Shown here in pieces: positions 112 to 18,032 of a DNA stretch of 64,000 bases. A program made the position numbers and the translations under genes. Source of the stretch: Gammaproteobacteria bacterium (GTDB taxonomy: Bacteria; Pseudomonadota; Gammaproteobacteria; HyVt-429); NCBI GenBank assembly GCA_022340345.1, contig JAJDOE010000033.1:9122-73121 (forward strand). Reading direction: 5' to 3'. Each line of letters starts with the position of its first letter. Within the stretch, counting starts at the first letter, position 1. The notes under the pieces were generated by a model that ran no database searches, was not told the origin of the DNA, and saw only the letters and a program-made list of their open reading frames with translations.

Positions 112-2784
<2,673 letters not shown>

Positions 2785-2829
2785 CCCCGCTTCGCTCCGC
2801 TGCGTAGTAGACTGCGCGGCGGAGGTCGC

Positions 2830-4116
2830 ATGATATTTTCTGCCCACACCCGCCGGATCTCCGGATTCTCGCTGCTGCTGTCCTTATGGCTGCTATCACC
2901 CGCCAGCGTATCCGCCGCCTGCGATGCCGACGCCCGCCAGGCGAGTGGCTCCATCTATCGAATCTGCATGCCGGCACGAGCCTGGAACGGCGACCTGATG
3001 ATCTGGGCGCATGGTTTCCAGGCGGCCAATGAACCGGTTTCCATTCCGGAGGACCAGAACAACTTCGGCGGCATCCCGGTGAACGCGGTATTCAACGCCC
3101 TCGGTTTCGCCTTCGCCACCAACAGCTTCAGCAAAACCGGTCTGGCGGTTAACCAGGGCCGCCGGGACCTGCTCGACCTGGTGGAAATCTTTCGCCGAAA
3201 GAAGGGCACGCCGCGACGGGTTTATCTGCTGGGAGCCTCCGAGGGCGCCCTCATCAGCACCCTGTTGCTCGAACAGCACCCGGAAATATTTAACGCCGCG
3301 GTGGCCGCGTGCGGACCCCTGGCAAGTTTCCAGTCCCAGATCAACTATCTTGGCGATGCTCGCCTGCTTTTCGATGTGTTTTTTCCCGGGCTGATCCCGG
3401 GTGGCGCCTTTTCCGCGCCACGGGCGCTGGTGGATAACTGGCGCGGCTACCTGGACCAGGTTGTGCTGCCAGCGGTCCACGACTCCGGCTCACGTCCCGC
3501 CCTGGAGCAATGGCTGGCCGTGGCGGGGGTGCCGTTCGAGCACGGCGATTTCCAGGCCACGGTTCGTGAGGCGGTCGGTGATGTGTTGAGTTACGCGGTA
3601 ATCAACCAGCAGGACACCATAGATACGCTTGGCGGATTTCCTTACGAAAATCTGACTCGCGCGTACTCCGGCAGCACCGATGACCTGCGGTTGAATGCGC
3701 TGGTACCCCGCTATGGGGCGGATGCCGCCGCCCGGCGGGAAATCGATTCACGCTATACGACCAGCGGAACGCCGAGGCGGCCGCTGATCACATTGCATAC
3801 CCTGCGCGATCCGCTGGTCCCCTACTCGCAGACCCTTGGCTATCTGCAGCGCGCATGGGCAGCCGGCGCAGAACAGCAGCCGCTGCACTTTCCGGTGGAC
3901 CGCTTCGGTCACTGCAATTTTTCGTTCGCCGAGGTGTTGTTTGCGGTGCTTGTGATGCTGGTGGCCGACGGAAACACCGGTGCGTTGCAGCGGCTGGACC
4001 AGGCGCTTGCCCCCCGCCAGCTTGCACAGTTACGCAGCACAGCGCAGCATCATGGCTTTGGCGGGTCGCCGGCCAACTGGCCACGACCGGCGTGGTTGCC
4101 GCCGCGCGGCGATTGA
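2830..4116 (+). CDS. secreted alpha/beta-fold hydrolase (esterase/lipase-like), function unknown
   Basis: N-terminal signal peptide (LLLSLWLLSPASVSA); GxSxG nucleophile elbow GASEG; 428 aa; no specific family recognised. Confidence 0.55.
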   Translation: MIFSAHTRRISGFSLLLSLWLLSPASVSAACDADARQASGSIYRICMPARAWNGDLMIWAHGFQAANEPVSIPEDQNNFGGIPVNAVFNALGFAFATNSFSKTGLAVNQGRRDLLDLVEIFRRKKGTPRRVYLLGASEGALISTLLLEQHPEIFNAAVAACGPLASFQSQINYLGDARLLFDVFFPGLIPGGAFSAPRALVDNWRGYLDQVVLPAVHDSGSRPALEQWLAVAGVPFEHGDFQATVREAVGDVLSYAVINQQDTIDTLGGFPYENLTRAYSGSTDDLRLNALVPRYGADAAARREIDSRYTTSGTPRRPLITLHTLRDPLVPYSQTLGYLQRAWAAGAEQQPLHFPVDRFGHCNFSFAEVLFAVLVMLVADGNTGALQRLDQALAPRQLAQLRSTAQHHGFGGSPANWPRPAWLPPRGD

Positions 4117-4176
4117 AAACCGGGCGGATTGCCCCCATTACTAACCCGATTTGGCCTTTCTGGAGGAGCTCCTATC

Positions 4177-5097
4177 ATGGAACAGTACGGTGTTCTCGTT
4201 CTCGTCCTTATCGTTGTTGCGGCATTCCTCTTATTTAAGTATGTACGCATCGTTCCCCAAGGTATGGAGTACACCAAGGAGCGCCTTGGTAAGTATCAAA
4301 AAACCCTGACGCCCGGTTTTCACCTGCTGGTCCCCATCGTCGAGCGGGTTGGCGCCAAGGTCAACATGAAAGAGCGCGTGCTGGACGTGCCATCCCAGGA
4401 AGTGATTACCAAGGACAATGCCGTGGTACGTGTAGACGGCGTGGTTTTTTTCCAGGTGCTGGATGCCGCGAAAGCGACCTACGAGGTAAACAACCTGGAG
4501 CATGCGACGCTCAATCTCACCATGACCAATATCCGTACCGTGCTGGGTTCCATGGACCTGGACGAGAGCCTTTCCAAGCGGGACGAGATCAACCACAGCC
4601 TGCTGCGGGTAGTGGATGACGCTACCAATCCGTGGGGCATCAAGGTCACCCGCATCGAGATCAAGGACATTGCGCCGCCCCAGGACCTGGTGGATGCCAT
4701 GGCCCGCCAGATGAAGGCGGAGCGGGAAAAGCGAGCCAACATTCTCGAGGCCGAAGGCTTCCGCCAGGCGGCGATCCTCAAGGCCGAGGGCGAGAAGCAG
4801 GCCGCGGTGCTGGAGGCCGAAGGCCGAAAGGAGGCCGCGTTCCGAGACGCCGAAGCCCGGGAACGCCTCGCGGGCGCGGAGGCCAAGGCCACCGAGGTCG
4901 TGTCAGCGGCCATCGCCAGTGGCGACATCAACGCGGTGAACTACTTCGTGGCACAGAAGTACATGGATGCACTGGCGACCATCGGTTCCGCCGAGAACGA
5001 AAAAGTGCTGTTCCTGCCGCTGGAGGCGAGTAGCGTCATCGGTGCCATCGGTGGCATCGCGGAAATCGCCAAGGAGGCGGGGAAGGCGCGGTCATGA
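4177..5097 (+). CDS. qmcA: SPFH/band-7 (stomatin-like) membrane protein, QmcA-like
   Basis: Strong similarity by eye to E. coli QmcA/YbbK (TM helix then VPQG..ERLGKY..., [25 protein letters not shown]..., [15 protein letters not shown] repeats); ATG at 4177 preceded by GGAGGAG RBS. Confidence 0.85.
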
Positions 5098-5561
5098 TGG
5101 AGTTCCTGACGACCTGGACCCACTGGCACTGGTGGACCGTGGCGGCGGTGCTGATCCTGCTGGAGATGGCGGCACCGGGAATCTTTTTCCTGTGGCTCGG
5201 CCTGGCGGCGGTGGTGGTAGGCGCGCTGGCGCTGGTCGCGCCGGGCCTGGGCATTGAAATCCAGGGCCTGCTGTTCGCGGTCCTCTCGGTGGCGGCGGTG
5301 GTGGTCGGGCGCATGTACTGGAAGCGCACCCAGGAAGGTCCCACCGACCAGCCGTTTCTGAACCGCCGCGGCAGTCAGTACGTGGACCGGGTATTCCACC
5401 TGAAGGCACCCATCGTGGATGGCGTTGGCAAGCTCAACGCGGACGACACGACCTGGAAAGTGCGCGGCCCGGATGTCGATGCCGGTACCCGTGTGCGGGT
5501 CACCCGCGTCGACGGCACCTGGCTGGTGGTCGAGCCGGCCGGCGAAAAACCCTCCGCCTGA
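5094..5561 (+). CDS. NfeD-family membrane protein (partner of SPFH protein)
   Basis: Start ATG overlaps the qmcA stop (ATGATGG); two TM helices plus a C-terminal OB-fold-like segment ([27 protein letters not shown]), typical of the short NfeD/YbbJ form. Confidence 0.8.
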
Positions 5562-5564
5562 CGC

Positions 5565-6425
5565 TCAGGTGGCGTTGACTTCCCGCCACACCCGCGCACT
5601 GGGTTGTGCGCGGTTGAGCGTATAGAAGTGCAATCCCGGTACGCCGCCTTCCAGCAGGCGGCGTACCAGCTCCGTGGTCACCTCCTCGCCGAATTTCCGC
5701 AGACTCTGCAAATCGTTCGCATAGGTCTCCAGCCGGCGGCGGATCCAGCGTGGGATTTCCGCGCCGCAGGTGTCCGAGAAGCGCACCAGTTGCTCGAAGT
5801 TGGTGATCGGCATGATCCCGGGAACCACGGCTATCTCCACCCCCAGCGTCCGCAGGCTGTCCAGAAAACGGAAGTAGGCGTCCGCGTTGTAGAAATACTG
5901 CGTAATCGCTGAGTCCGCCCCGGCCTCGACCTTGCGGCGGAAATTCTCCAGGTCCGCGGCGGCGCTGGCGGCCTGGGGATGAAACTCCGGGTAGCAGGCC
6001 ACCTCGATGTGAAATTGATCGCCGGTTTCCGCGCGAATGAAAGCCACCAGTTCATTGGCGTAGCGAAACGTACCGGGGGTGGTGCCCATCCCGGACGGGA
6101 GATCACCACGCAACGCCACCAGCCTGCGAATCCCGGCATCCCGATAGCGGAGCAGCAGCTCGCGGATGCTTTCGGTGGTAGAGCCAACGCAGGAGATGTG
6201 TGGCGCCACTTCGGTTCCGGTACGTGCGCGGATATCCTCCACCGTTTCGCAGGTCAGGTCGCGGGTGCTGCCGCCGGCGCCGAAAGTTACCGAGTAAAAG
6301 CGCGGATGCAGGTCCCCGAGCACATCACATGCGTCGCGCAGATTCTCGAGGCCCTGCTCGGTACGCGGTGGAAAGAACTCGAAGCTGAGTTGGAAGTCCG
6401 TCATAAAATCGCGAGCCCACCGCAC
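5565..6425 (-). CDS. metF: 5,10-methylenetetrahydrofolate reductase
   Basis: LSFEFFPPRTEQG...SVTFGAGGSTRD...ALRGDLP motifs align with E. coli MetF. Start is either the ATG at 6425 or the ATG at 6404 (MTDFQ). Confidence 0.9.
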   Translation of the reverse strand: MRWARDFMTDFQLSFEFFPPRTEQGLENLRDACDVLGDLHPRFYSVTFGAGGSTRDLTCETVEDIRARTGTEVAPHISCVGSTTESIRELLLRYRDAGIRRLVALRGDLPSGMGTTPGTFRYANELVAFIRAETGDQFHIEVACYPEFHPQAASAAADLENFRRKVEAGADSAITQYFYNADAYFRFLDSLRTLGVEIAVVPGIMPITNFEQLVRFSDTCGAEIPRWIRRRLETYANDLQSLRKFGEEVTTELVRRLLEGGVPGLHFYTLNRAQPSARVWREVNAT

Positions 6426-11715: not shown

Positions 11716-12775
11716 GTTCCGCCTCCACCGGAAGGTAAATGGAAAACACGGTGCGTCCGGGTTCGCTGGTACAGGTAATCAGGCCATCGTGACGCTGAAT
11801 GATTTCCTGCGCGATGGCGAGTCCCAGGCCAGTGCCGCGCGCCTTGCCGGTGACCATGGGCAGGAAAACCCGATCCCGCAGGCTCTCCTCGATGCCGGGC
11901 CCGTTATCCTCGATGTCACAGCGCACCACCAGGCGATGCAGGCGGGTGCCGATCACGAACTGGCGATGTGCGCGGGTGCGCACGGTGATCCGGCCGCTTC
12001 GCTCCACCGCTTCGGCGGCGTTGCGCAGTACGTTGAGCAGCGCCTGGGTGAGCTGCTCGGAGTCGCCACGGCAGCGCGGCAGGCTGGGGTCATAGTCGCG
12101 CACCACGCTCATTACATTGGGGAACTCCGCCTCGATCAGGCGCCGCACGTGCTCCAGCAGCCGGTGCAGGTTGAGACTTTCATTCTGCGGCGGTTTGCTG
12201 GAACCCATGATTCGGTCCACCAGGTTCCGCAACCGGTCCGCCTCGTGGATGATGATGCGCGTGTATTCTTTCAGCTCGCGGCTACCGAGCTCGGCTTCGA
12301 GCAACTGGGCCGCACCCCGCAGCCCCCCGAGGGGATTTTTGATTTCGTGTGCCAGCCCACGCATGACCACGCGGTTGCTGGCCTGCTGACTGAGGAGCTG
12401 CGCGCCGCGGGCCAGGCGCTGGTCCAGTGCGTGAATTTCGACCACCGCCGTGCAGGCCCCGAGCGGCGGGGTCTGGGGACTGATGGTGAAATCGGCGCTG
12501 AAGATCTCGTGGCCGGCGCCGGTGAGCTGCACCGCGCGCGCGGTGTAGCGACTGCCGTCGGCCACCGCCTGGCGCAAGGTGTCCACCAACGCCGGGTCGT
12601 GCAGCAGATCCGCCAGTGGCTGGCCACGGGCCTGGCGAGTGGACACCCCCAGCAATTCCTGGGCGGCGGCGTTCATGGCCAGCAGTTGCATTTCTCCATC
12701 CAGGCACAGCACCCCGGTGGCCAGGCCATCCGCGAGTCCGTCGGTATCCGAGACCAGGGGAGTGTTTTGCACCAA
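11708..12775 (-). CDS. ntrB: nitrogen regulation sensor histidine kinase NtrB (NR-II)
   Basis: PAS-like N-terminus, H-box (GLAHEIKNPLGGLRGAAQLL) and HATPase (GTGLGLAIAQEI); 355 aa; overlaps the ntrC start by 8 nt. Confidence 0.9.
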   Translation of the reverse strand: MVQNTPLVSDTDGLADGLATGVLCLDGEMQLLAMNAAAQELLGVSTRQARGQPLADLLHDPALVDTLRQAVADGSRYTARAVQLTGAGHEIFSADFTISPQTPPLGACTAVVEIHALDQRLARGAQLLSQQASNRVVMRGLAHEIKNPLGGLRGAAQLLEAELGSRELKEYTRIIIHEADRLRNLVDRIMGSSKPPQNESLNLHRLLEHVRRLIEAEFPNVMSVVRDYDPSLPRCRGDSEQLTQALLNVLRNAAEAVERSGRITVRTRAHRQFVIGTRLHRLVVRCDIEDNGPGIEESLRDRVFLPMVTGKARGTGLGLAIAQEIIQRHDGLITCTSEPGRTVFSIYLPVEAEHA

Positions 12776-12790
12776 AACAGTGCAGGCTGG

Positions 12791-12833: not shown

Positions 12834-14243
12834 TCAGATGCTGTAGTACATGTCGAACTCGACCGGGTGAGTGGTCATGCGGAATCGCGTGACCTCCTCC
12901 ATCTTCAGGCCGATGTAGGCGTCGATGGAGTCATCCGTGAATACGCCACCGGCCTTGAGGTACTCCCGGTCCTGGTCGAGGGCCTCCAGGGCCCCTTCCA
13001 GCGAGGCCGCAACGGTGGGAATGGTCTTCGCCTCCTCCGGCGGCAGGTCGTACAGGTCCTTGTCCATGGCTTCCCCCGGGTGGATCTTGTTCTGGATCCC
13101 GTCCAGGCCGGCCATCATCAGGGCGGCGAAGGTGAAATACGGGTTGCCGGCGGCGTCCGGAAAGCGCACCTCAATCCGCCGTGCCTTGGGGCTGGAGACG
13201 TAGGGGATACGAATGGATGCGGAGCGGTTGCGCGCCGAGTAGGCGAGCATGACCGGCGCCTCGAATCCCGGAACCAGGCGCTTGTAGGAATTGGTGGAGC
13301 CGTTGGTGAAGGCGTTCAGGGAGCGGGCATGCTTGAGGATGCCGCCGATGTAGTACAGGGCGGTCTCGCTCAGGTTGCCGTACTCGTCGCCGGCGAAGAT
13401 GTTGTTGCCGTCCTTGCTCAGGGACTGGTGCACGTGCATGCCGCTGCCGTTGTCTCCGACCAGGGGCTTGGGCATGAAGGTGGCGGTCTTCCCATACTGG
13501 TGGGCAACGTTGTGCACGCAGTACTTGAGGATCTGGTTGTGGTCGGCGCGCACTACCAGGGAGTTGAACAGGGTGCCGATCTCGCACTGGCCGGCGGTGG
13601 CCACTTCGTGGTGGTGCACCTCGGTCATCACGCCCATCTCCTCCATGGCCGCACACATGGCGGAGCGCAGGTCCTGAAGGGAATCCACCGGCGGCACCGG
13701 GAAGTAACCGCCCTTGAGGCCCGGCCGGTGACCGATGTTTCCGTCCTCGAAAACCTTTTCCGAGTTCCAGGAGGCCTCGTCGGAATCGACCTTGTAGAAG
13801 GCGCCGCCCATGTTGGCACCCCAGCGCACGTCGTCGAACACGAAGAACTCCGGCTCCGGACCGAAGTACGCGGTATCCGCCACGCCGGTACTCTTCAGGT
13901 AGGCCTCGGCACGCTTGCCGATGGTGCGCGGGCAGCGATCGTAGCCCTGCATGGTGTTGGGCTCGACGATGTCGCAGCGCAGGATCAGGGTCGGCTCCTC
14001 GATGAACGGGTCCATCACCGCAGTGGAGGGATCCGGCATCAGGATCATGTCCGACTCGTTGATGCCCTTCCATCCGGCGATGGAAGAACCGTCGAACATC
14101 TTTCCCTCCTCGAACAGGCTCTCATCGACCGTGTGGGTGGGAACGGAAACGTGCTGTTCCTTGCCGCGGGAATCGGTAAAACGGAAATCGACGTACTTGG
14201 CGTTTTCTTCCTTGATCATCTTCAGGACGTTGTCAGCAGACAT
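12834..14243 (-). CDS. glnA: glutamine synthetase type I
   Basis: [35 protein letters not shown]... and the GS-I signature throughout; 469 aa. Confidence 0.95.
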
Positions 14244-14312
14244 GGCAATGGACTCCAGCTATTGGTCAGTCGATGCCCGGCAAGCGGGCAGAAAATTCAG
14301 GTTCCAAAATAG

Positions 14313-14328
14313 TGCAGGATACGTGCCA
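14313..14328 (-). promoter_or_regulatory. sigma54 (-24/-12) promoter for glnA (glnAp2-like)
   Basis: Minus strand TGGCACgtatcCTGCA matches the TGGCAC-N5-TTGCA consensus; ~70 nt upstream of the glnA ATG. Confidence 0.55.
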
Positions 14329-14390
14329 GCCCGGCACGATACCCAAGCGGTTGATTTCCAGCGGTTTCCGGATTCGGGACCGGGGCCATT

Positions 14391-14437
14391 CGCACCACTA
14401 TAGTGCAACGAATGGAGATATGCACCAAAATAGTGCG
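14391..14437. promoter_or_regulatory. two NtrC-binding palindromes (enhancer) upstream of the glnA sigma54 promoter
   Basis: cGCACCActaTaGTGCAa (14391-14408) and TGCACCAaaaTaGTGCg (14421-14437) match the NtrC consensus TGCACCA-N3-TGGTGCA; a third half-site (aaaaTAGTGCA) overlaps the promoter. Confidence 0.55.
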
Positions 14438-14439
14438 TA

Positions 14440-15597
14440 CTAGTGGAAATAGACCTCCAGGTTTCCGAACACCGGGTCCTCCGCCACCGCCCCGCGGAAG
14501 GCTTCTCCCAGGCTCGCGCGTTGCGGCTCCGCGCAGGCGGCCAGCGGCAGGTACAGTTCGACGTGAACCCGTCCTCCCAGGTAGTGCAGGCGGACGCCGT
14601 CGATCTGCCCGATTTCCGGAAAGCCGGCGAGGCGTTGCCGGATGCGTTCGAGCATCTCGGAACGCAGCGGCAGGCCCAGGCTCGGCGGTTGTACTTCGTC
14701 GTCCTCCGGGTCGATGTGTACCGTGACATCGGTGAGCGCCGGCAACCCGGAAATCAGCGCATGGCGTACCGCCTCGCTGATATGGTGACCCTCGGAAACA
14801 CTGACGTCCTCCTTGACCAGCAGATGCAGGTCCGCCAGTGCCCGACCGCCGACGCTGCGGGTGCGCAGCTCGTGCAGCGACTTCACACCGTCCACCGAAA
14901 GAGTCACTTCGCGGATCTGCTCCAGGTCCGCGCTCTCCAGGCCCGTATCCACCAGCTCGCGAACCGCTTCCCAGGCCAGCTGGATGCCAATGCGGCCAAC
15001 CATGATGGCGACCCCCACGGCCGCCAGGGCGTCGAGCCAGGTTACGCCCAGCAGCGCGCCGCCCACACCCAGTAGCACGATAACCGAGGAGATTGCGTCG
15101 CTGCGGTGGTGCCAGGCATTGGCACGCAGCAGGCGCGAGTCGTATTGCTTGGCGACGCGCAGGGTATAGCGATACAGGCCTTCCTTGGAGAAGATCGCGG
15201 CAAAAATCGCAACCAGGGTCCACGCCGAGGGGACCGGGATGTTTGCGGGGTCGGAGAGTCGGATGCCGGCACGTGCCGCAATGCCCACGGCCACCGCCGT
15301 GAGCATCATTCCCAGGATTACGGTTACCACGGTTTCATAGCGCCCGTGGCCGTAGGGGTGCTCCTCGTCCGCGTCCTGGGCCCCGGCGTGCAGGCCCCAG
15401 AGCACCAGCACGTCGGTTACCAGGTCGGAAACGGTGTGGACACCGTCCGCCAGCAGGGCCTGGGAGCGACCCAACCAGCCCAGTAGCAACTGCAGCGAAG
15501 CCAGCGCGGTGTTGATCACCAGGCCGGTGAGGGTTATCCGGCGGCTGGCGCGCAACCGGGCGGACCCGCCCTGTTCCAGTTCGGCGACGAATTTCAC
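14440..15597 (-). CDS. cation diffusion facilitator (CDF) family divalent-metal efflux transporter
   Basis: Six-TM CDF core (TLTGLVINTALASLQLLLG..., HTVSDLVTDVL, HAGAQDADEEHPYGHGRYE) plus a C-terminal cytoplasmic domain. No ATG before the TM domain, so the likely start is the GTG at 15597 overlapping the TusA stop (GTGA). The ORF-track N-terminal 119 aa overlap the TusA gene in another frame and are rejected. Confidence 0.75.
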   Translation of the reverse strand: MKFVAELEQGGSARLRASRRITLTGLVINTALASLQLLLGWLGRSQALLADGVHTVSDLVTDVLVLWGLHAGAQDADEEHPYGHGRYETVVTVILGMMLTAVAVGIAARAGIRLSDPANIPVPSAWTLVAIFAAIFSKEGLYRYTLRVAKQYDSRLLRANAWHHRSDAISSVIVLLGVGGALLGVTWLDALAAVGVAIMVGRIGIQLAWEAVRELVDTGLESADLEQIREVTLSVDGVKSLHELRTRSVGGRALADLHLLVKEDVSVSEGHHISEAVRHALISGLPALTDVTVHIDPEDDEVQPPSLGLPLRSEMLERIRQRLAGFPEIGQIDGVRLHYLGGRVHVELYLPLAACAEPQRASLGEAFRGAVAEDPVFGNLEVYFH

Positions 15598-15836
15598 GGG
15601 TTCGGTCCCACCCGCAGGCAGACGCGGAACTCCCGTTCCGCAGCGTCCACCGGGCCAGCCTCCAGCACCAGGTGACCGTTGACCCGGCACCAGGCCGGGA
15701 TGTCGGCCAGCACGCCCGGGTCCGTGGCCAGCACTTCCAGCTCCTCCCCGGGCGCAAGCCGTGCAACCCGCTCCTGCGTGCGTATCACCGGCATCGGGCA
15801 AAGCAGATGCCGGGCGTCCAGTCGTTGACGGTTCAT
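15594..15836 (-). CDS. TusA-like sulfur carrier protein (SirA/YedF/YeeD family)
   Basis: 80 aa with the hallmark CPxP motif (LLCPMPV) and TusA fold spacing; start ATG overlaps the stop of the upstream PP-loop gene (ATGA). Confidence 0.8.
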   Translation of the reverse strand: MNRQRLDARHLLCPMPVIRTQERVARLAPGEELEVLATDPGVLADIPAWCRVNGHLVLEAGPVDAAEREFRVCLRVGPNP

Positions 15837-16876
15837 AGGTACCAGTAGGCAGGGATCTCTTCGGCAGGCAGGGGACGCACGGTACGCAACTGGCGTTCTC
15901 CTCCGGGGTGCACAATCTCCACCTCCACGGATTCTGCCTCGCGTCCCTGACCAAAGCGGGCGGTCAGCCGGGCCGCCAGCTCCAGATCCGCCGCCGCGGG
16001 CTCACCATCCAGCAGCGCCAGCGGGCCGGGATGGGAGGTCGCATTCAGGTGCACGAACTGGCGGCGGTAGCCCATAAGGAAATTGTTCTCGCCGTCGTCG
16101 CGGGCGACGATGAGCTTGAAGTGAGGCCGCGGCCGCAGGTGCCGGCCCACTTTGAGCAGCATGATGTCGTCGAATTCGTAGCTCCGCTCGCCGCGCATCT
16201 GCCAAAGGTCACCCAGCTTGCGGGCATAGTTTTCATCGGTCAGAAAGCAGCAACCGCCGGCGGGCTGGGCATAGTCCGCAAACCCGAACTCTGCCGCCAG
16301 CGCCATCTGGGGTTTGCGGCTGCGCCCGGAAAAATCGTGCAGCAGCTGCCGGTCCACCCAGCCCTCCCGTTCCGGCAGCGTCTCCGGCAGCAACCGGGCG
16401 CACAGCGGCCGCAGCAGGCGGTCTCCGGCCCCCGACTCGCGGGCGATGACGGGCATGGTGTCGCGACGCTGGGACTTGGGGCGCTGGCCAACCACCTCGC
16501 CGGTGACGATGAAGTCGAAATCGTGCTCGATCATCCACTCGTGGGCCTTGCCGACCATGAAGCCCTTGCAGTCCAGGCACGGGTTGAGATTGGAGCCGTA
16601 GCCATGTCGCGGCGCGGTGACAATGGCCTTGTACTCTTCGATGACTTCGACGATATGCAGGCGGATTCCGAGCTGCTCGGCCACCCACAGGGCATTGTTA
16701 CGTTTGGGTCGGCCACGGTCCTTGCTGCGGATGGCGTGGGTATGTCCCTCGACGCAAAAGCCCGTAAAAAAATTGATGCCTTCTACGTGAACGCCCTGTT
16801 GCTGTACGACTTTGGCGGCCAGCAGGGAGTCCAGACCGCCGGATATGAGGGCTACGGCTTTGGCTGGCTTGGTCAT
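15833..16876 (-). CDS. MnmA/ThiI-superfamily PP-loop ATP-pyrophosphatase (putative thiouridylase-like sulfurtransferase)
   Basis: PP-loop SGGLDS. N-terminal region aligns by eye with E. coli MnmA (KAVALISGGLDSLLAAKVVQQQGVHVEGINF vs [38 protein letters not shown] vs NPDILCNK; GGCCFLTDENYARKLG vs TGICFIGERKFREFLG). Also carries the ThiI-like TGEVVGQRPKSQ motif. Start taken as the ATG at 16876 (MTKPAKAV). Confidence 0.75.
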   Translation of the reverse strand: MTKPAKAVALISGGLDSLLAAKVVQQQGVHVEGINFFTGFCVEGHTHAIRSKDRGRPKRNNALWVAEQLGIRLHIVEVIEEYKAIVTAPRHGYGSNLNPCLDCKGFMVGKAHEWMIEHDFDFIVTGEVVGQRPKSQRRDTMPVIARESGAGDRLLRPLCARLLPETLPEREGWVDRQLLHDFSGRSRKPQMALAAEFGFADYAQPAGGCCFLTDENYARKLGDLWQMRGERSYEFDDIMLLKVGRHLRPRPHFKLIVARDDGENNFLMGYRRQFVHLNATSHPGPLALLDGEPAAADLELAARLTARFGQGREAESVEVEIVHPGGERQLRTVRPLPAEEIPAYWYL

Positions 16877-16917
16877 GGGGCATCGCGGGGTGGCCGGGCA
16901 GTCTAGCACCGGGAAAC

Positions 16918-16947
16918 AGAAAAAAGGGGCCCGGCATGCAGGGCCCC
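16918..16947 (-). terminator. intrinsic-terminator-like hairpin in the 5' leader of the PP-loop/TusA/CDF operon (attenuator, riboswitch expression platform or sRNA 3' end)
   Basis: Minus strand GGGGCCCtgcatgccGGGCCCC followed by TTTTTTTCTGTTT; lies about 40 nt upstream of the PP-loop gene start, and no minus-strand gene lies upstream of it. Confidence 0.45.
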
Positions 16948-17156
16948 GGACTTTGCTCGCCCGGCCTCTGAACGGGCCGGCTCCTCCTTGTGTGATTCGG
17001 GCCGGGTGTTAGCCGACCGGGACACGATAGCCAAAAGGCTTGCGGCTGTCCATTCGCGGAACGCGCGGCGATTGCCCGGCGAGCACCGCCCGGCCGCGCA
17101 TCTGCCCTTCGCTTGCGGCATAATCGGCGCCCCGACGACGCCCCCAGCCGCACCAC

Positions 17157-18032
17157 GTGACCTTCCAGGAACTCATTCTCTCCCTGCAAACCTTCTGGGC
17201 ACGCCGTGGCTGCGTGTTGCTGCAGCCGCTGGATATGGAGGTCGGCGCCGGCACCTTCCACCCGGCCACCTTTCTCGGCGCCATCGGTCCGGAACCTTCC
17301 CGCTGCGCCTACGTGCAGCCGTCCCGCCGTCCCACCGACGGGCGATACGGCGAGAATCCCAACCGACTGCAGCACTACTACCAGTACCAGGTCATCCTGA
17401 AGCCGTCACCGCTGGATATCCAGGAACAATATCTGAAGTCCCTGGTGCACCTGGGTATCGACCCGGCGATCCACGACATCCGCTTTGTCGAGGACGACTG
17501 GGAATCGCCCACGTTGGGCGCCTGGGGACTGGGCTGGGAAGTCTGGCTCAACGGTATGGAGGTGACCCAGTTCACCTATTTCCAGCAGGTGGGCGGCCTC
17601 GACTGTCGCCCGGTCACCGGAGAAATCACCTACGGCCTGGAACGCATCGCCATGTACCTGCAGGGCGTTGATAGTGTTTTTGACCTGGTGTGGACGCCAG
17701 GCGTGAGCTATGGCGACGTGTACCACCAGAACGAAGTGGAACAGTCCGCGTACAATTTTGAATATGCCAACGTGGACGAATTGTTGCGCCTGTTCGATGC
17801 CAGCGAGACGGAGAGCCAGGCGCTGATCGAAAAAAAGCTGCCGCTGCCCGCCTACGAAAAGGTGCTGCGGGCCTCGCATACTTTCAACCTGCTGGATGCG
17901 CGAAACGCCATCAGTGTTACCGAGCGGGCGCGCTACATCGGGCGGGTCCGGGGCCTGTCCCGTGCGGTGGCGGAAAGTTACTTCGCCAGTCGCGAGGCGC
18001 TTGGCTTCCCGCGGTGCAAAACGGGCCGATGA
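17157..18032 (+). CDS. glyQ: glycine--tRNA ligase alpha subunit
   Basis: [35 protein letters not shown]... is essentially invariant GlyQ sequence; GTG start. Confidence 0.95.

Follow-up and report, generated by a model that had tools for sequence, protein, structure and literature searches.

Within a 64,000-nucleotide stretch of gammaproteobacterial contig JAJDOE010000033.1 (hereafter the window, meaning the whole of the DNA that was analysed), three consecutive genes encode a ThiI-like PP-loop ATPase carrying an NFACT-R_2 domain (15833-16876; ATG start, 347 aa), a TusA-family sulfur carrier (15594-15836; ATG start, 80 aa) and a FieF/YiiP-like cation diffusion facilitator (CDF; 14440-15597; GTG start, 385 aa), the gene limits being taken from the open reading frame (ORF) list and the sequence; coordinates are those of the window, and features lie on its minus strand unless otherwise stated. 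We lean towards the reading that the first two genes constitute a thiolation pair already known from prediction, and that the CDF gene is a conserved but dispensable, co-transcribed passenger situated upstream of glnA. Most likely the pair thiolates a uridine of tRNA at the expense of ATP, the persulfide coming from TusA. The CDF is judged dispensable because some half of the close relatives, and every one of the 18 informative distant loci, have the pair but not the CDF, because an ortholog of it occurs without the pair, and because TusA shows no sign of adaptation to its presence; it is best seen as an optional passenger of the operon, one that the thiolation machinery would not require.

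Identity of the PP-loop enzyme

Judged by its domains and motifs, the 347-aa protein is a member of the ThiI+DUF814 family and not an MnmA. This family was described by Burroughs and Aravind in 2014 as a ThiI-like PP-loop protein without THUMP and rhodanese domains, fused to the RNA-binding domain of NFACT/RqcH proteins and almost mutually exclusive with canonical ThiI (PMC4075521). Its members keep the CxxC and an internal cysteine and carry the extra loop motifs GRxRxxQ and TxxE, while their DUF814 part has no DxxxH motif and holds two near-invariant arginines; TusA was reported as the sole conserved gene neighbour, and an alternative tRNA 4-thiouridylation pathway was predicted for the two together (PMC4075521). 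All the diagnostic motifs of that description are present in the protein of the window, which resembles the published system in architecture, in its SGGxDS, CxxC, internal cysteine, GRxRxxQ, TxxE and the two NFACT-R arginines, and in having an adjacent TusA with a CPxP cysteine.

In the Pfam scan of the protein, NFACT-R_2 (PF18297, also DUF814; 15839-16147), a predicted RNA-binding module, was placed on aa 244-346 with an E-value of 1.3e-34, and two of its arginines, R245 and R259, are invariant. The N-terminal matches, covering aa 6-158, were weak (tRNA_Me_trans HUP, 2.2e-10; ThiI, 3.1e-07), and neither THUMP nor Rhodanese was among the four families returned by the scan. The best PDB fold matches of the AlphaFold model (pLDDT 92.6) were MnmA-tRNA, TtuA, [4Fe-4S]-LarE and ThiI, with an NFACT protein for the C-terminal part, and a PDB profile search aligned aa 253-327 with the NFACT-R region of RqcH at 1.4e-05. 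The protein shares with the canonical ThiI/TtuI of E. coli and Bacillus the PP-loop core, a TGExxGQxxSQ-type motif, the internal catalytic cysteine and the folds of 2c5s and 4kr6; unlike them it has neither THUMP nor rhodanese, RNA binding presumably falling to NFACT-R and sulfur delivery to TusA, and it reaches only 33.9 bits on the ThiI equivalog TIGR00342, whose cut-off is 264.5.

The earlier note on this DNA, made from the sequence alone, had assigned the enzyme to the MnmA family, and the HMM check that was run did not bear this out. The MnmA equivalog NF001138 scored 40.9 bits (cut-off 284) and TIGR00420 39 bits (cut-off 236.95), the tRNA_Me_trans match spanned the HUP part only (profile positions 3-130 of 202), and the alignments of PDB MnmA structures ended at residue ~169. 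The likeness is limited to the N-terminal ~130-170 residues, the central and C-terminal barrel domains of MnmA being replaced by NFACT-R_2 in the 347-aa protein, and the motifs TGExxGQxxSQ and GRxRxxQ resemble ThiI or are peculiar to the family. That the protein might be an orthodox MnmA, a tRNA s2U34 synthase, would agree with record names such as 'tRNA U34 2-thiouridine synthase MnmA/TrmU', with the presence of MnmA among the best sequence and fold hits and with the alignment of its NPC100xxC103 block to the NPCVMC of MnmA 9hln in the PDB profile search; we nonetheless give this identity hardly any credence, MnmA membership being refuted by the sub-threshold scores and the NFACT-R_2 architecture.

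Most homolog records are labelled MnmA/TrmU or 'tRNA (5-methylaminomethyl-2-thiouridylate)-methyltransferase'. Since the MnmA scores are sub-threshold and the NFACT-R domain is present, these labels are a systematic mis-annotation of the ThiI+DUF814 family, which comprises 864 clusters (50% identity) at E<1e-30. Close homologs, with 73-78% identity, belong to Thiohalobacter, Thiogranum, Immundisolibacter, Methylomarinovum and Acidiferrobacteraceae.

Conservation was read from a family alignment of 30 diverse members, namely the protein of the window and 29 homologs, down to 34% identity. Invariant throughout are the PP-loop signature SGGLDS (aa 12-17; 16826-16843), the ATP pyrophosphatase/adenylation site; the CxxC formed by C100-L-D-C103 (16568-16579), which matches the NPCxxC of C-type MnmA; and C210 of the C209-C210 pair (GGCC; 16247-16252), the third cysteine of a CxxC+C triad, whereas C209 is variable. 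Invariant or nearly so are T125-G-E-V-x-G-Q-R-P-x-S-Q136, T166/E169 (TxxE) and G184-R-x-R-x-x-Q190 (GRxRxxQ), the first of these reading TGEVVGQRPKSQ at aa 125-136 in the protein of the window, a ThiI-like motif of the TGExxGQxxSQ type. The suggestion that this is an atypical PP-loop enzyme, uniting such a ThiI-like motif with additional cysteines in CLDC and GGCC, is supported, and all three elements are present.

A putative iron-sulfur site

The CxxC+C arrangement is an experimentally supported [4Fe-4S] ligand set in related enzymes (PMC9825150, PMC7025502). In the archaeal TtuI/ThiI of M. maripaludis the catalytic cluster is held by Cys265, Cys268 and Cys348, the 2022 paper being silent on the ThiI+DUF814 family (PMC9825150), and in the C-type MnmA of T. 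thermophilus it is held by Cys105, Cys108 and Cys200, the corresponding cysteine triad in TtuA having been pointed out in the same study (PMC7025502). The invariance of C100, C103 and C210 therefore suggests that the PP-loop/NFACT-R family uses a [4Fe-4S] cluster too, and the C100/C103/C210 site of the window protein probably holds one. The likeness to TtuI, C-type MnmA, TtuA/NcsA and [4Fe-4S]-LarE lies in the CxxC+C triad and in the fold matches to TtuA-[4Fe-4S] and LarE-[4Fe-4S]; unlike these sulfurtransferases, the present enzyme has another RNA-binding module and as carrier a TusA in place of TtuB or free sulfide, and its cluster is a predicted one. The 2014 model for the family was built on persulfide chemistry (PMC4075521), whereas the triad suggests a [4Fe-4S] mechanism; an Fe-S mechanism was not considered for ThiI+DUF814 at that time and is a new element here.

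In the proposed route, Cys13 of TusA (CPMP) would receive persulfide sulfur from a cysteine desulfurase, and NFACT-R_2 would hold the RNA substrate, most likely a tRNA with U8 as the predicted target. The PP-loop (SGGLDS) would adenylate the uridine, and sulfur would then be inserted at the C100/C103/C210 site, probably with a [4Fe-4S] cluster, in a manner comparable to archaeal TtuI, C-type MnmA and TtuA. The tRNA U8 substrate, the Fe-S cofactor and the route of the sulfur are the parts of this scheme that we infer, as are the metals moved by the CDF and expression of the genes as one transcript; the domain architectures, the motifs, the overlaps of the genes and the neighbourhood statistics are observed.

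The neighbours of distant family members include genes for sulfur or Fe-S supply. In one distant lineage an IscU/NifU_N gene precedes the PP-loop/NFACT-R gene (locus L086, positions 220-687), in another a class-V aminotransferase resembling cysteine desulfurases and an Fe-S carrier of the Mrp/NUBPL type flank it (L101, positions 1746-6101), and in a third a cysteine-synthase-like PALP enzyme adjoins it (L158). Such neighbours fit a sulfur or Fe-S supply context for the family.

As a second reading, the earlier note had proposed that the enzyme's product is a metallophore or another small molecule containing sulfur, to be exported or loaded with metal by the CDF protein. PP-loop sulfur insertases can indeed use small molecules, the fold matches include LarE, and a transporter does stand in the operon. 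However, NFACT-R_2 is an RNA-binding module common to RqcH and NEMF, no further biosynthetic genes are found in the operon on the ORF list, and in most lineages the pair occurs without any transporter; moreover, CDF proteins move bare divalent cations and not organic ligands, as is well established for the family. Export of a small molecule by the CDF accordingly found no support, and the proposal as a whole strikes us as very nearly negligible: an RNA substrate is favoured because the C-terminal domain is an RNA-binding fold that is also found in RqcH.

The TusA carrier

The 80-aa product of the second gene was assigned to the TusA family by Pfam (PF01206; 1.9e-19, 69.7 bits, above the cut-off of 28.6). 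Its CPxP cysteine is C13 in the CPMP block (15789-15800), it also carries the motifs TDPG...DIPxWC...GH, and the C-P-x-P residues are conserved in at least 95% of 96 TusA orthologs. The pair is like the MnmA-TusABCDE s2U34 relay of E. coli in that a PP-loop thiouridylase is served by a TusA-family persulfide carrier; it differs in that no TusBCD or TusE genes occur at the locus, in that the enzyme is without the C-terminal domains of MnmA, and in that the TusA of the window stays below the cut-off of the E. coli TusA equivalog NF001423 (44.7 bits against 78).

TusA with its CPxP motif adjoins the enzyme gene in 102 of 121 informative loci of close relatives, and the earlier idea of a dedicated sulfur relay is plausible. 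The pairing of a PP-loop enzyme with TusA is not new, because it was both described and interpreted in 2014 (PMC4075521); the association with the CDF, which the earlier note did not recognise from described thiolation systems, is previously unreported, and our literature searches found no link between a CDF and TusA.

Operon layout and gene starts

The three genes are joined by two overlaps of four nucleotides, as the earlier note had it and as can be read directly from the sequence. At the ATGA junction (15833-15836) the TGA of the PP-loop gene occupies 15835-15833 and the ATG of TusA 15836-15834; at the GTGA junction (15594-15597) the TGA of TusA occupies 15596-15594 and the GTG of the CDF gene 15597-15595. 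Such an overlap is the commonest junction type in compact bacterial operons, and on its own it indicates co-transcription and coupling but not a common function. The genes probably form a tightly packed, translationally coupled unit, and by their layout all three would be expressed from a single transcript. Nor are the junctions peculiar to the window: the PP-loop and TusA genes overlap by 4 nt in 70 of the 113 related loci that have both, and of 53 loci with a CDF behind TusA, 37 have a CDF start that overlaps the TusA stop or directly adjoins it.

The GTG is the sole CDF start that fits a conserved N-terminal block, RYxASRRVT, matched by residues 7-20 in an alignment of 23 orthologs; the next in-frame start is a TTG at codon 14, and the GTG is supported because starting there would truncate this block. 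For the PP-loop gene, an alternative GTG start at 16909 found no support from the N-termini of homologs or from the identical protein in the database. The operon is flanked upstream by the divergent genes glyQ/glyS on the plus strand, from 17157 onwards, and downstream by glnA (12834-14243) and then ntrB. No paralogs of the PP-loop, TusA or CDF genes were found within the 64-kb window.

The CDF exporter

The 385-aa protein was recognised as a cation diffusion facilitator by the superfamily model TIGR01297 (230.4 bits, cut-off 82.35) and by Pfam (Cation_efflux, 6.4e-43; ZT_dimer, 1.3e-25), and its nearest relatives are FieF/YiiP, followed by MamB and MamM. It stays below the cut-offs of all the equivalogs (FieF, 132.5 against 420; MamB, 200.8 against 350; MamM, 181.2 against 350). 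The E. coli FieF structure 2qfi matches at 1.5e-27 with all three YiiP metal sites aligned, and YiiP 5vrf is the best fold match of the model (TM-score on the target 0.77), which has a pLDDT of 80 and comprises six transmembrane (TM) helices and the usual alpha-beta-beta-alpha-beta C-terminal domain (CTD). Site A consists of H54/D58/H163/D167 where YiiP has D45/D49/H153/D157, that is with D45 changed to histidine, and site B of D77/H80/H84 (D68/H71/H75 in YiiP); at site C the His and Asp residues of the CTD are kept and aligned to YiiP. The metal-site residues are invariant in the alignment of 23 orthologs. We take the protein to be a divalent-cation exporter with an HD-HD transport site, its metals presumably being those of the Zn2+/Fe2+/Co2+ class.

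In its TM helices, CTD fold and three metal sites the protein is thus like the FieF/YiiP of E. coli and Shewanella, from which it differs in the H-D-H-D in place of D-D-H-D at site A, in its location in a thiolation operon and in an extra CTD-like domain of ~85 aa. This extra domain (aa ~305-385; 14443-14685) is modelled with a pLDDT of ~90 as helix 312-322, strands 334-340 and 343-350, helix 359-371 and strand 377-384. On account of this secondary structure in the model we interpret it as a degenerate second CTD in tandem with the first, in which the metal-site residues have been lost. All 23 orthologs have this domain, whose LPxR...LHY...G motif is invariant and which holds no conserved cysteine. 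Its Pfam matches were both sub-threshold (ZT_dimer, E 0.039; FeS_assembly_P, E 0.092), the PDB profile search returned only the CTD of MamM (E 0.11), and no solved CDF structure among the fold hits covers it. We do not take it for a known sensor or sulfur-carrier domain, and its similarity to the CTDs of CDF proteins is faint.

Gene neighbourhood across relatives

The loci sampled were 80 genomic and 80 metagenomic ones encoding relatives of the PP-loop protein, in which TusA, CDF, glnA, glyQ and ntrB were located by tblastn and HMMs; loci whose PP-loop protein is at least 60% identical to that of the window are called gamma-type and those with 37-57% identity distant. The common gene order is divergent glyQ, PP-loop gene, TusA, optionally CDF, glnA and ntrB. 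The 102 of 121 gamma-type loci mentioned above have TusA directly downstream of the PP-loop gene; among 101 informative ones, the CDF follows TusA in 48 and is missing from the rest, and glnA comes next in 64. Two features here set the locus apart from the published system, which has TusA as sole neighbour: roughly every second gammaproteobacterial locus couples a FieF-like CDF to TusA by start and stop codons, and the pair is situated upstream of glnA. In four loci (L163, L165, L166 and L168) a gene for a monofunctional transglycosylase (Pfam Transgly), which is absent from the window, separates glyQ from the PP-loop gene and is encoded on the same strand as glyQ.

In many distant loci TusA adjoins the PP-loop gene, be it upstream or downstream, and none of the 18 informative ones has a CDF. 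Their neighbours include no CDF-type transporter, and instead IscU, class-V aminotransferase, Mrp/NUBPL and PALP genes, among others; an association with the CDF outside Gammaproteobacteria was accordingly rejected. In a neighbour-joining tree of the PP-loop proteins the CDF-bearing loci are scattered in patches over several deep branches, namely Methylococcales; Chromatiales, Sedimenticolaceae and Thiodiazotropha; Thioalkalispiraceae; and Acidiferrobacteraceae, and the CDF is absent from the branches of Pseudomonadales, Arenicellales and Methylophaga. This patchy distribution fits an old arrangement with repeated loss.

Six orthologs of the CDF (50-55% identity) were sampled as well. Five stand directly after a PP-loop/TusA pair, several of them with the 4-nt overlap, and the sixth is in a CDF-glnA-ntrB arrangement with no PP-loop or TusA gene nearby. 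The triad, whose conservation the earlier note had left to be checked, recurs in the 48 gamma-type loci and around five of the six orthologs and is absent from the other gamma-type loci and from the 18 distant ones. When TusA sequences of 54 CDF-bearing loci and of 42 loci lacking the CDF were compared column by column, no position distinguished the two sets, and a specialisation of TusA in CDF-bearing loci was rejected.

Passenger or working part

The same observations bear on whether the CDF contributes to the chemistry of the pair. The earlier note had entertained a CDF that supplies metal or cofactor to the enzyme, for which there is no support: the pair occurs without the CDF, the CDF without the pair, and TusA is unchanged between the two situations. 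A broader version would have the three genes work together, a jointly expressed efflux of Zn2+/Co2+/Cd2+, or a buffering of Fe2+, protecting or tuning a metal-sensitive thiolation chemistry whose vulnerable parts would be the exposed iron of a [4Fe-4S] cluster and the cysteine persulfides, with thiolation and metal homeostasis co-regulated. The overlapping or abutting TusA/CDF junctions and the reciprocal linkage of the CDF orthologs speak for it, as do the retention of the triad without glnA in Methylococcales, the invariant CxxC+C with its [4Fe-4S]-binding counterparts in related enzymes, the Fe-S assembly genes beside distant family members and the preservation of all YiiP metal sites in the CDF, with HD-HD at site A. 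Against it stand the absence of the CDF from half of the close relatives and from all the distant ones, the ortholog beside glnA without the pair, the alike TusA residues in loci with and without the CDF, and the want of a conserved cysteine in the CDF extension; nor was any site of the Fur, Zur or IscR type seen, although no search aimed at such sites was made, and no precedent was found in the literature. We regard such a functional triad as improbable, and keep it under consideration because the junction and the linkage have outlasted what would be expected of a neutral passenger.

More specific, and to our mind rather less probable again, is the proposal that the CDF with its tandem CTD takes part in the work of the module, its metal efflux, or sensing of metal by the extra domain, being tied to a tRNA thiolase that depends on a [4Fe-4S] cluster and is fed by TusA. 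Were this true, tRNA thiolation in methanotrophic and sulfur-oxidising gammaproteobacteria would report or depend on the Zn/Fe status of the cytoplasm, and, as no terminator precedes the glnA enhancer, the same transcript might feed nitrogen assimilation. A functional link of metals to the Fe-S chemistry is possible and is unsupported by the present data.

The view of the CDF as a dispensable passenger of a thiolation pair, which we prefer, has weights of its own to carry. The start of the CDF gene overlaps or abuts the TusA stop in the 37 of 53 loci already mentioned, with a gap of at most 15 nt in 8 others and a wider one in 8; five of six orthologs are linked to the pair; and the triad stays intact in Methylococcales and Cycloclasticus even where glnA is not its neighbour. 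Its persistence over deep gammaproteobacterial branches exceeds the neutral-passenger expectation, and the CDF subfamily has a conserved extra domain of its own. As for the pair, the literature searches found no experimental study of any PP-loop/NFACT-R member, only the 2014 prediction, and the assignment of the family to tRNA-s4U8 is a prediction only.

The glnA side and transcription signals

The control region of glnA (14313-14437) follows directly on the CDF stop, in line with the earlier remark that a glnA enhancer adjoins the operon. Pattern searches found two NtrC-like palindromes in it (14421-14437 and 14391-14407), the first of them 3 nt past the stop, and a sigma-54-type promoter, TGGCACGTATCCTGCA (14313-14328). 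A further palindrome of this type is found before ntrB, at 12768-12784.

The promoter and terminator scans reported here register consensus matches only. No terminator-like site was found between the CDF stop and glnA (14243-14440); read-through from the operon into glnA is therefore possible, and NtrC might possibly act as a roadblock to it. Neither a promoter-like nor a terminator-like site was found between TusA and CDF, and inside the operon there was no promoter-like site and one weak terminator-like match, within the PP-loop gene, at the level of chance.

These signals prompt the question of whether the CDF belongs to the glnA neighbourhood, by a tie of cation handling to glutamine synthetase and nitrogen control or by an NtrC-independent read-through into glnA. 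Where present, the CDF always stands between TusA and glnA, and glnA follows in 35 of the 48 CDF-bearing loci; one ortholog has the order CDF-glnA-ntrB without the PP-loop/TusA pair, and the stretch from the CDF stop to the enhancer is free of a terminator-like site, with the first NtrC site 3 nt on. However, the CDF is coupled by start and stop codons to TusA and not to glnA, from which a gap of 130-430 nt separates it, glnA is equipped with a sigma-54 promoter and enhancers of its own, and TusA-CDF is kept in 12-13 loci that have glnA elsewhere. We consider an affiliation of the CDF with glnA very unlikely.

Upstream of the operon, the glyQ/PP-loop intergenic region holds the only sigma-70-like match, TGGACA-17-TATCGT (17024-17052), a weak one with 1 found against 0.4 expected. 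The same region contains a terminator-like element, a GC-rich 7-bp hairpin with a T6 tract (16916-16947), 49 nt upstream of the PP-loop ATG, which together with a neighbouring stem has a folding energy of -21 kcal/mol. A terminator on the operon strand would be unneeded here because glyQ is divergent. A hairpin of this kind precedes the PP-loop gene in just 9 of 124 related loci and has no Rfam match; a conserved attenuator or riboswitch was rejected on that count, and the hairpin could be a relic, or else an attenuator or insulator particular to this lineage. Neither Rfam on the window nor a permissive scan of 14200-17300 placed an RNA family in the operon or its leader. The sole Rfam hit in the window is an S-adenosylhomocysteine (SAH) riboswitch (RF01057; 7882-7965) with 58.2 bits against a gathering threshold of 37.

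In P. aeruginosa the canonical thiI is PA5118, and we take glnA there to be PA5119 and thus its neighbour. The PP-loop/NFACT-R enzyme and canonical ThiI may accordingly share a glnA neighbourhood, as far as this assumed position of PA5119 is right.

Significance

Overall, the PP-loop/NFACT-R enzyme and TusA represent a widespread system for which an alternative tRNA 4-thiouridine pathway was predicted in 2014 and which is routinely mis-annotated as MnmA. What is new in this locus and its roughly 130 relatives is the CDF with a tandem CTD, coupled to TusA by start and stop codons at some half of the gammaproteobacterial loci, together with the position upstream of glnA and the proposed Fe-S site. 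Since the CxxC+C triad is known to bind [4Fe-4S] in sister enzymes, a route to s4U that depends on Fe-S may exist in bacteria. If the presumed adjacency of thiI and glnA in P. aeruginosa holds, the location of the operon would be consistent with functional equivalence to ThiI. The coupled CDF would either have travelled with the pair for a long time as a passenger or hint that metals control thiolation. The current understanding is not overturned by these results, which mainly correct the annotation of the family and sharpen an existing hypothesis about it.

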